Shown piece after piece: positions 24,537-25,415 of a DNA stretch of 64,000 nt. This stretch comes from a virus. A program made the translations under genes and the position numbers. Each line of letters begins with the position of its first letter. Positions within the stretch are counted from its first letter, which is position 1. Under the pieces are notes generated by a model. It saw only the letters and a program-made list of their open reading frames with translations. It ran no database searches and had not been told where the DNA came from. Location of the stretch: the IMG/VR virus record IMGVR_UViG_3300035210_000132, positions 92,596-156,595 of that record, one strand, 5' to 3'.

Positions 24537-25415
24537 CTAACTACTCTCCTTTGCACTGACTGACCGCATCTGATTCGAGCTGATGATCTCAGGGGGCGTG
24601 GAGAACTGGGTAAGGTCTACGTACGCGACCTGGCCCCCTCCCTTTCCTTTCGCTGTGTACATGGCCAGGTCAGTTTCTCGGAGCATGACATCCACAGACT
24701 CAGGGATGATCTTGAAGGTCACACAGCCTACTGAGATGAATAACTTTCCGAAGGAGGCCACGGAGATCTGTTGCCTGATGCGGTCAATCACCACCTTGGC
24801 GCCTTCCCCATCAGTCTCAGGGAGCAAGATACAGAACTCATCACCACCCACCCGAGCGGCAAGATCCGAGGCTCTTAGGCTCTTCCGAAAGCTATCTCCA
24901 ATCAGCTTCAAGGCATGATCCCCTGTAGCATGGCCGAGCTTGTCATTGATGAGCTTGAAGTTATCAACATCTACTCCTAGGCAGGTCATGATGCGGTTGT
25001 GCCGAAGAGAGCGGCTGAGCTCGGCCCTCCCTGCTTCGTAGAAGGCCCTAGGATTAAGCAGGCCCGTCAGAGCATCTGTCCTAGATAAAAGCTTCTCACT
25101 CTCGATGGTGGCTCTCAAGTTGGTCACCAAGAAGGTGATCATCAGGTAAGTCATAGACTGAAGCGAGATCATGATCTGATGGGCCACGGGACCCGCGCTA
25201 CCTTCTGAGGTAGCTAAGTGCAAGGTAAGGGAGGAAACCGCACAGACTCCCAGTCCTGGCAGCCTCCCACAAAACCAACCAGTCAGGATAATCGGGAGGA
25301 GATAAATAGGAGTGAGAGGCAAGCTAGTCTGCAGATACCCATCTACAAAGTAGGTCAGCTTACCTATGAGAGGAAGAAGGCCTATGCTGCTAGCAAGAAC
25401 GGCTAAACCCCGCAT
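24537..25415 (-). CDS. Membrane-anchored GGDEF-domain diguanylate cyclase
   Basis: Two or three N-terminal TM helices, then 'LTGLLNPRAF...CLGVDVDNFKLINDKLGHATGDHAL...RVGGDEFCILLP...ETDLAMYTAKGKG' (GG[DE]EF active site and inhibitory-site-like RxxD region). Confidence 0.85.
   Translation of the reverse strand: MRGLAVLASSIGLLPLIGKLTYFVDGYLQTSLPLTPIYLLPIILTGWFCGRLPGLGVCAVSSLTLHLATSEGSAGPVAHQIMISLQSMTYLMITFLVTNLRATIESEKLLSRTDALTGLLNPRAFYEAGRAELSRSLRHNRIMTCLGVDVDNFKLINDKLGHATGDHALKLIGDSFRKSLRASDLAARVGGDEFCILLPETDGEGAKVVIDRIRQQISVASFGKLFISVGCVTFKIIPESVDVMLRETDLAMYTAKGKGGGQVAYVDLTQFSTPPEIISSNQMRSVSAKESS

Follow-up and report, generated by a model that had tools for sequence, protein, structure and literature searches.

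A candidate membrane-bound diguanylate cyclase gene lies antisense within the tRNA array of a large phage

The window analyzed here is a stretch of 64,000 nucleotides, positions 92,596 to 156,595 of the IMG/VR virus record IMGVR_UViG_3300035210_000132, whose source contig is 199 kb long. On its minus strand, at 24537-25415, lies an uninterrupted open reading frame (ORF) that starts with ATG and encodes a GGDEF-domain protein of 292 amino acids. We propose that this gene of a bacteriophage (phage) probably encodes a small, product-inhibited diguanylate cyclase of the inner membrane, which would raise the level of cyclic di-GMP (c-di-GMP) in the host during infection. The gene sits within an array of transfer RNA (tRNA) genes and nearly fills, on the opposite strand, the 927-nucleotide gap between tRNA-Pro(tgg) and tRNA-Ile(tat). 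Its parts and immediate surroundings, in window positions, are as follows.

24537-25415, minus strand: the whole ORF, comprising a module of four transmembrane (TM) helices, a stalk helix, the GGDEF domain and a disordered C-terminal tail (residues ~270-292), from Pfam, TIGR00254, AlphaFold and Foldseek.
25116-25415, minus strand: N-terminal membrane module, residues 1-100, from hydropathy, charges, the structural model, a weak DUF4118 match and relatives.
24636-25079, minus strand: GGDEF catalytic domain, residues 113-260, from the Pfam envelope and alignment to WspR and 3IGN.
24834-24848, minus strand: active-site (A-site) motif G190-G-D-E-F194, from the sequence, aligned to GGEEF of WspR.
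24864-24875, minus strand: inhibitory site (I-site) R181-A-S-D184, from alignment to relatives and WspR.
24636-24650, minus strand: C-terminal phosphate-binding segment K256-G-K-G-G260, aligned to 'AKNNGRNQ' of WspR.
24465-24537, plus strand: tRNA-Pro(tgg), convergent with the ORF, its final base doubling as that of the ORF's stop codon, from ARAGORN and Rfam.
25416-25464, minus strand: leader of 49 nucleotides between the start codon and the antisense tRNA-Ile(tat), from the sequence.
25465-25540, plus strand: tRNA-Ile(tat), divergent from the start of the ORF, from ARAGORN and Rfam.
18611-39889, all members on the plus strand: array of 32 tRNAs that encloses the GGDEF gene in antisense orientation, from ARAGORN.

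A preliminary description of this DNA had reported a complete GGDEF domain with the active site 'GGDEF', and had named a Pfam scan as one way to check it. In that scan the GGDEF profile (PF00990) matches residues 113-260 at E=5.3e-33 and 114.5 bits, against a cut-off of 23.8, and nearly the whole of the profile is covered (positions 3-159 of 161), with the motif itself at residues 190-194. NCBIfam TIGR00254 gives 128.8 bits (cut-off 37.4). Both scores are well past chance, and none of the named NCBIfam equivalogs was matched. When the sequences of solved structures are searched with the protein, the best match is 3IGN (E=1.8e-26), followed by WspR, SiaD, TpbB/YfiN and PleD, which are GGDEF domains of diguanylate cyclases. 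The gene call of the source database (P0001) covers only a 205-residue product that starts at M88. We rejected this shorter call because the 87 residues upstream of M88 are conserved among relatives, and the 292-residue reading is therefore preferred.

The protein was aligned residue by residue with 16 relatives (17 sequences in all), with WspR, and with 119 database homologues (120 sequences including the query). Across the last of these alignments the catalytic columns of the domain are invariant in 114-120 of the 120 sequences. The G, G and E columns of the A-site do not vary at all; D149 and K154, the metal-binding aspartate and the transition-state lysine of the DxDxFK segment, occur in every sequence and align with DVDYFK of WspR; and of the two guanine-specifying residues N157 is present in all 120 and D166 in 114. 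The phosphate-binding lysine, K256, is also present. We take the offset to PleD numbering from D149 to G190 to be a constant 178, which gives D327, K332, N335, D344, R359/D362 and G368. An RxxD motif five residues before GGDEF is the classical product-inhibition site, and here R181-A-S-D184 ends exactly that distance before G190 and aligns with RSSD of WspR, the arginine being kept in 119 of the 120 sequences and the aspartate in 118. What had been described as an I-site-like region is in other words an intact RxxD. Substituted A-site residues had been named beforehand as the mark of a degenerate domain; in the alignment the A-site motif of the protein is intact, and the sole deviation is a glycine at position 260. 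Judged by sequence, then, the protein has all the features that define the GGDEF family save the equivalent of R446 of PleD, which is taken up below.

The same residues bear on what such an enzyme would make. The GGDEF fold supports other activities in a minority of proteins, and the gene might encode a Hypr-type synthase of cyclic GMP-AMP (cGAMP) or cyclic di-AMP (c-di-AMP), or a YybT-like ATPase, perhaps acting on cyclic-nucleotide defence signalling. A Geobacter GGDEF structure, 6d9m, is among the structural matches, and genes of a kind associated with nucleotide and RNA conflict lie nearby, namely a NUDIX hydrolase and a cREC-type receiver-like protein. However, the feature of Hypr proteins, Ser or Thr at the position of PleD D344, is absent; the retention of D166, where Hypr proteins have Ser, argues against a cGAMP-making variant, N157 is retained as well, and the GGDEF protein matches no PADLOC family (models of defence and counter-defence) at E<=0.01. 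The NUDIX gene (23683-24129, plus strand; PF00293, E=6e-19; PADLOC candidate-defence family PDC-S07, E=9e-9) lies on the other strand and is convergent with the GGDEF gene, so the two do not form an operon. We regard a product other than c-di-GMP as very improbable.

N-terminal to the domain, residues 1-100 comprise four hydrophobic helices that carry hardly any charges, and R2, R51 and R101 fall on the predicted inside, which is consistent with both termini being cytoplasmic. An AlphaFold model made from the 17-sequence alignment has a mean predicted local distance difference test score (pLDDT) of 89 and places helices at residues 2-28, 35-49, 51-69 and 76-111. The multi-TM module of the preliminary description is accordingly seen as four helices by both hydropathy and the model, and its sequence is conserved among relatives, with no variation at M1, P41 or W47 in the 17 aligned sequences. 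The loops between the helices are so short that they leave no room for an extracytoplasmic sensor. DUF4118 (PF13493) matches residues 10-68 below its threshold (E=0.002, 18.3 bits against 28.4), and several relatives of equal length and ~35% identity carry PF13493. We therefore call the module DUF4118-like; it is not a demonstrated member of DUF4118.

In the monomer model, helix 76-111 runs without a break from TM4 out of the membrane and into the GGDEF domain, as a stalk. The top Foldseek matches of the model are the diguanylate cyclases WspR, PleD and SiaD, with a TM-score of up to 0.88 on the target and a root-mean-square deviation of 1.6 Å, and its C-terminal domain superposes on the GGDEF domain of WspR at 1.6 Å. 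The best structural match is 3i5c, a fusion of a GCN4 zipper to WspR. Helix 76-111 of the model resembles those of stalk- or zipper-activated cyclases and should be suited to dimerisation. With WspR of Pseudomonas and PleD of Caulobacter the protein thus shares its fold, the GG(D/E)EF A-site, the metal and guanine ligands, RxxD and a helical stalk. Unlike them, it has a bare four-helix membrane anchor instead of a receiver domain, and a glycine for the arginine of 'GRN', and its gene belongs to a phage.

The gene had been described as phage-encoded and as one of the few on the minus strand, and the remainder of the window bears out both statements. The features that place it are the following.

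14173-16272: rIIA, PHROGs match at E=2.5e-93.
16291-17463: rIIB, PHROGs match at E=2.7e-63.
8322-10294, plus strand: thyX, split by a group I intron that carries an HNH ORF.
1445-2563, minus strand: peptidoglycan-binding/3D-domain protein, lysin-like.
3182-4621, minus strand: LigD-phosphoesterase/ATP-ligase fusion of 479 residues, from weak domain matches.
38537-38950, plus strand: cREC-type receiver-like protein of 137 residues, stand-alone and inside the tRNA array, from PF20274.
Various positions: Dam-type methylase, dCMP deaminase and several HNH endonucleases.

The plus strand bears every one of the 32 tRNAs and almost all of the supported genes, the other supported minus-strand genes being those at 1445-2563 and 3182-4621. 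The carrier is a large, tRNA-rich phage and is probably virulent. One might instead suppose that the gene belongs to bacterial DNA, to a chimeric assembly or to a tRNA-array island of a bacterium, since the 64-kb window holds no capsid, portal or terminase gene and its contig was not returned when IMG/VR was scanned with the GGDEF protein. This supposition is hardly credible beside the rIIA and rIIB matches, the 32 one-strand tRNAs among ORFans, the intron-split thyX with its HNH ORF and the absence of any recognised housekeeping gene from the window. In a second, independent assembly, a 3963-bp contig matches the GGDEF gene and the seven tRNAs around it at 100% identity, which means that the junctions between gene and tRNAs are not an assembly artefact. 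A syntenic relative is, moreover, catalogued as a viral genome of 196 kb.

That relative, IMGVR_UViG_3300034358_000044 (L090/L169 in our lists), is a viral contig with 41 tRNAs on one strand. The longest tRNA order common to the window and L090 is 22, against 8.1 ± 1.2 (maximum 12) in 2000 shuffles, and the two arrays are homologous in gene order. Collinear between the contigs are also thyX (41-61% identity), an HNH gene (66%) and orf40875 (32%); the parts of thyX are contiguous in the relative, so the intron is missing there. The L090 array is far more compact, with only three protein genes, and a GGDEF gene lies antisense in it, between tRNA-Asn and tRNA-Cys and overlapping both. Its product has 286 residues, four TM helices and intact RNVD and GGDEF motifs (Pfam E=2e-32). 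The window gene stands three tRNA slots further on than this counterpart. The conserved antisense placement of a GGDEF gene within a homologous tRNA array is the new detail of this work. That two diverged members of a lineage keep an intact GGDEF gene in the same orientation argues against a decaying passenger. The tRNA DNA shared by the window and L090 consists only of T-arm matches of 18-19 nucleotides, which are too generic for finding further members of the lineage, and when the GGDEF protein of L090 was used to scan IMG/VR, nothing came back but its own contig and distant matches.

Among 5.8 billion proteins the GGDEF protein has a sole close relative, P0002, which is 53% identical over 92% of the length. 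P0002 comes from a 2-kb contig of 62% GC, without tRNAs and not phage-like, where it adjoins a weak transposase match. The next tier, at ~35-39% identity, is a family of ~280-residue proteins with four TM helices and a GGDEF domain, and the three members that we looked up all lie in ordinary bacterial chromosomal neighbourhoods. Such DUF4118-like bacterial proteins (among them P0003, P0006 and P0036; Desulfosarcina, Pusillimonas and others) resemble the phage protein in size and layout and are 30-39% identical to it over almost all of its length, membrane helices included; their genes differ in standing beside mraZ/rsmH, dnaJ/prmA or ion transporters, where the window gene stands between phage tRNAs. 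The best GTDB matches, 33-44% identical, are spread across Acidobacteriota, Desulfobacterota, Pseudomonadota, Chloroflexota, Deinococcota and others. These comparisons indicate that the phage gene derives from a cellular family and not recently from any sequenced species. We also tried to infer a host from the nearest cellular GGDEF homologues, and abandoned the attempt because matches scattered over so many phyla hold no signal.

Among viruses, an alignment-based scan found GGDEF relatives on at least 550 IMG/VR contigs, and several of the best of these lie on contigs of 97-209 kb with the same small TM-plus-GGDEF layout. In PHROGs the protein matches phrog_5594 (E=1.4e-37) and six further families. 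Single-protein scans of IMG/VR with the GGDEF protein and with rIIA gave no match, and no close relative emerged when 12 kb was compared with GenBank phages by megablast. A neighbouring 202-residue protein has IMG/VR homologues in unrelated phages, with no GGDEF alongside.

We hypothesize that the protein would work as follows. The four TM helices would anchor it, and TM4 would extend as a cytoplasmic stalk that pairs with that of a second subunit. The paired stalks would bring together two GGDEF domains, each holding one GTP, to yield c-di-GMP, and binding of this product at RxxD would cap the output. Because there is no sensory domain beyond the membrane helices, activity would probably depend for the most part on the level of expression and on dimerisation. 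What a rise in c-di-GMP brings about is well known. If the gene is expressed during infection, the host would be pushed to the 'high' state, in which motility and pili are off, matrix and surface polysaccharide are on, and cell cycle and metabolism are affected. The phage might profit, for example, because the infected cell is kept in place or because the receptors of competing phages are removed.

Several observations weigh against this proposal, and the first of them concerns turnover. The segment that usually reads 'AKxxG(R/K)N' here reads 'AKGKGGG', so that the second phosphate-binding position, 260, is occupied by glycine; we take Gly260 to be the equivalent of PleD R446, and K256 that of PleD K442. 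Lysine or arginine stands at this position in 104 of the 120 homologues and glycine in 8, among them the closest relative, P0002. Turnover may be lower as a result, and K258 might compensate. A protein of this kind could be a weak or inactive GGDEF that uses its I-site to bind c-di-GMP at the membrane, as a sensor or sponge that lowers the free pool or couples it elsewhere. The glycine and the intact RxxD would both suit that role, and degenerate GGDEFs do exist in phages: an identical 284-residue protein with four TM helices, encoded at 7920-8774 of two viral contigs of 97 kb and 53 kb (L091 and L092), has a GGDAF active site, keeps RxxD and is likely a non-catalytic, c-di-GMP-binding variant. 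However, receptor-type GGDEFs usually lose the GGDEF motif itself. In the window protein all other A-site residues, including the metal-binding aspartate, the glutamate and K256, are canonical, and the 16 of 120 homologues (the query included) that have neither lysine nor arginine at position 260 keep an otherwise canonical A-site. Since the residue is not universally defining, Gly260 reads as a caveat on catalytic rate and not as the mark of a degenerate domain, and we consider a purely binding role improbable.

Further points on the same side concern the target of the signal. The ORFs of the window contain no PilZ, EAL, HD-GYP or MshEN domain, and no c-di-GMP-I or c-di-GMP-II riboswitch was found in the window even at E<=1. 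With no effector on the phage side of the window, the targets would presumably be those of the host. The preliminary description had suggested effects on host motility or biofilm state, or interference with defence; the window contains no c-di-GMP receptor, phosphodiesterase or riboswitch that would single out one of these, and a role in defence or counter-defence was rejected for want of a PADLOC match. The scatter of the cellular homologues gives no host signal either, and a host that uses c-di-GMP is presumed.

Expression raises another difficulty. A scan for promoters and terminators found no sigma-70-like promoter or intrinsic terminator in 24000-26300, and neither M1, M82 nor M88 of the gene has a Shine-Dalgarno motif, whereas AGGAGG-like sites occur at many other genes of the phage. 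The 65 nucleotides upstream contain no k-mer that recurs as a shared phage promoter would. The gene is antisense to a tRNA array that is presumably heavily transcribed, and any transcript of it must start in, or run into, antisense tRNA sequence. Its codon-adaptation index, 0.624, is at the low end of the range of the phage's genes (0.61-0.87).

The low codon adaptation and the missing Shine-Dalgarno motif would also suit a passenger, that is, an active or once-active bacterial cyclase that has lodged in a plastic tRNA array and has no adaptive role in infection. The history of the family lends itself to such an account: the window gene has no close relative in the phage databases, its only close homologue lies on a contig that does not look like phage and near a weak transposase match, and members of the wider family occupy ordinary chromosomal contexts. 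The window's array is, besides, full of small inserted ORFs and HNH genes. Yet the ORF is intact, with its catalytic and regulatory motifs and a conserved membrane module, and in a diverged relative a gene built and oriented alike persists in a much more compact array. The GC content of the gene, 53%, resembles the phage and not P0002, which suggests long residence. Both GC and codon usage fall within the phage range and carry no signature of recent transfer, and no notable direct or inverted repeats flank the gene. We find a mere passenger unlikely.

For the GGDEF genes of the window and L090, common ancestry is plausible. However, their products share just 32% identity, a value equal to that for orf40875, and are not each other's best matches; orthology by best-hit logic was accordingly tried and rejected, as the matches are not reciprocal. 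Independent insertions into a plastic region or hot spot are the alternative, and on both accounts the keeping of such a gene by two diverged members speaks against decay. Identity is ~32-35% across the whole family, and we judged a tree to be uninformative.

Other viral contigs carry comparable genes near their tRNAs. Small TM-plus-GGDEF genes with intact RxxD and GG(D/E)EF motifs occur inside or next to tRNA arrays on unrelated IMG/VR contigs (L143, 4183-4923; L116, 7722-8567, and L118, 1206-2051; L095, 7968-8654), there on the same strand as the tRNAs. Five or more tRNAs were found within 8 kb of 6 of 80 viral GGDEF loci and within 3 kb of 0 of 80 bacterial ones; bacterial GGDEF loci serve here as the comparison, where the proper null would be large-phage accessory genes of other kinds. 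Most simply, tRNA regions can be read as plastic zones that gather accessory genes. A more speculative extension of our proposal, to which we attach little credence, is that the cyclase is kept antisense in the array deliberately. Its expression would then be coupled to transcription of the array, through convergent transcription or antisense overlap with tRNAs, so that c-di-GMP reports or controls the stage of infection, and the tRNA-array genes of the window, L090, L143, L116/L118 and L095 could form a recurrent functional module and not random cargo. If this were true, c-di-GMP would, for example, be high in a carrier or pseudolysogenic state, before or without expression of the array, and low from the start of the lytic programme.

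GGDEF genes of phages as such are not new, and the window gene opens no new category. The novelty implied by the preliminary description was overstated, for such genes are already annotated in several cultured phages: SP15_150 of Bacillus phage SP-15 (annotated as a cyclase), gp350 of Bacillus phage G, a 'GGDEF-like' gene of Pseudomonas Yuavirus, and a gene of Bordetella phage LK3. SP-15 and G are jumbo phages, as is the phage of the window. These proteins are 25-40% identical to the window protein and differ from it in that the likeness lies in the GGDEF domain alone; the Yuavirus matches span just ~100 residues (query 89-197). The SP-15 protein is annotated at 183 residues, lies among glycosyltransferases, shares its strand with the genes beside it and, when its ORF is extended, reads one N-terminal hydrophobic segment. 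None of the SP-15, G, Yuavirus and LK3 genes is described as antisense in a tRNA array.

Three reports are precedents for a phage that gains from raised c-di-GMP, and point to different host processes. Lysogens of the GGDEF-carrying Bordetella phage LK3 are hyper-biofilm formers (PMC8471281). In PB1-like Pseudomonas phages, the YIP peptides switch on YfiN, a cyclase of the host, with reduced motility and possible superinfection exclusion (PMC8085984). The outcome expected for the window protein is alike, a phage product that raises c-di-GMP in the infected cell and lowers motility, but YIP, a small peptide, takes over an enzyme of the host, whereas the window phage would bring the enzyme itself, independent of the host's cyclases. 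Phage N4 needs a glycan receptor that depends on c-di-GMP (PMC8669472). A further viral cyclase gene has been described, in a Mu-like marine virus (PMC7785012), but GGDEF cyclases are not discussed in a comparison of 224 jumbo phages (PMC7824862). In the literature searched we found no enzymatic characterisation of any phage diguanylate cyclase.

The receiver-like protein at 38537-38950 had been put forward as a possible second component of the hijacked signalling, and this claim is not supported. The protein matches cREC_REC (PF20274) at 44.6 bits against a cut-off of 27 and fails Response_reg (PF00072) at 18.4 against 30.2, and cREC is reported never to occur in two-component systems (PMC7824862). 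No kinase was found among the ORFs of the window. The domain is predicted to be a cyclic-phosphate-processing enzyme and is linked to NAD+/ADP-ribose and RNA-repair genes of jumbo phages (PMC7824862), a role that suits its position in the tRNA array and not a c-di-GMP circuit. Pfam detected no RNA ligase beside the cREC gene.

Other contents of the array are also unusual. At 20264-20336 on the plus strand, between tRNA-Gln(ttg) and tRNA-Gln(ctg), ARAGORN finds a tRNA with the four-base anticodon 'attg' in an 8-nucleotide loop (Rfam 45.9 bits), which could be frameshift-suppressor-like or a degenerate copy. Small cysteine-rich, zinc-ribbon-like ORFs lie between the tRNAs around the NUDIX gene (22502-24456). 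The plus-strand gene at 30710-33361 encodes 883 residues that match the shoulder domain of the eukaryotic Major Vault Protein (PF11978, E=7e-28) and, weakly, a vault repeat (PF17795), with no PHROG, NCBIfam or PADLOC match; such a gene inside a tRNA array is unusual for a phage. Directly after it, at 33404-33922 (plus strand), a 172-residue protein has two H-x-T motifs ('HHMTVV' and 'PHITLY') by which, to the eye, it resembles a 2H phosphoesterase of the kind that processes RNA 2',3'-cyclic phosphates; it has no Pfam match even at E<=1.

Elsewhere in the window, the group I intron of thyX (Rfam RF00028, 60 bits) spans 9361-9634 and the HNH endonuclease ORF 8886-9542; exon 1 (8322-8828) ends at position 76 of the Thy1 profile and exon 2 (9620-10294) begins at position 77. 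In the protein at 3182-4621 only LigD_N passes Pfam (36.2 bits against 31.1), and the ligase adenylation and OB matches are sub-threshold. Two adjacent paralogues of 226 and 239 residues at 42-1444 (plus strand) have concanavalin-A-like lectin/glucanase domains (Laminin_G_3, E=2e-15) and may be receptor-binding or fibre-associated proteins. A MoxR/dynein-type AAA_5 ATPase at 58370-59407 (plus strand) lies 337 nucleotides upstream of a 760-residue protein (region to 62027), with a 110-residue ORF at 59404-59736 between them. The larger protein has a C-terminal DxSxS motif ('DMSGSM') that, read by eye and with no Pfam match, is suggestive of a vWA domain as in MoxR-vWA pairs.

If the GGDEF protein is active, the phage brings its own c-di-GMP synthase, and the switch between motile and sessile states would be forced directly and independently of the host. 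Being compact (292 residues), with all its motifs and a syntenic counterpart, it is a reasonable candidate for the first enzymatic test of a phage cyclase. The antisense placement within a tRNA array is a small, testable oddity that bears on how huge phages arrange their accessory genes and time their expression.

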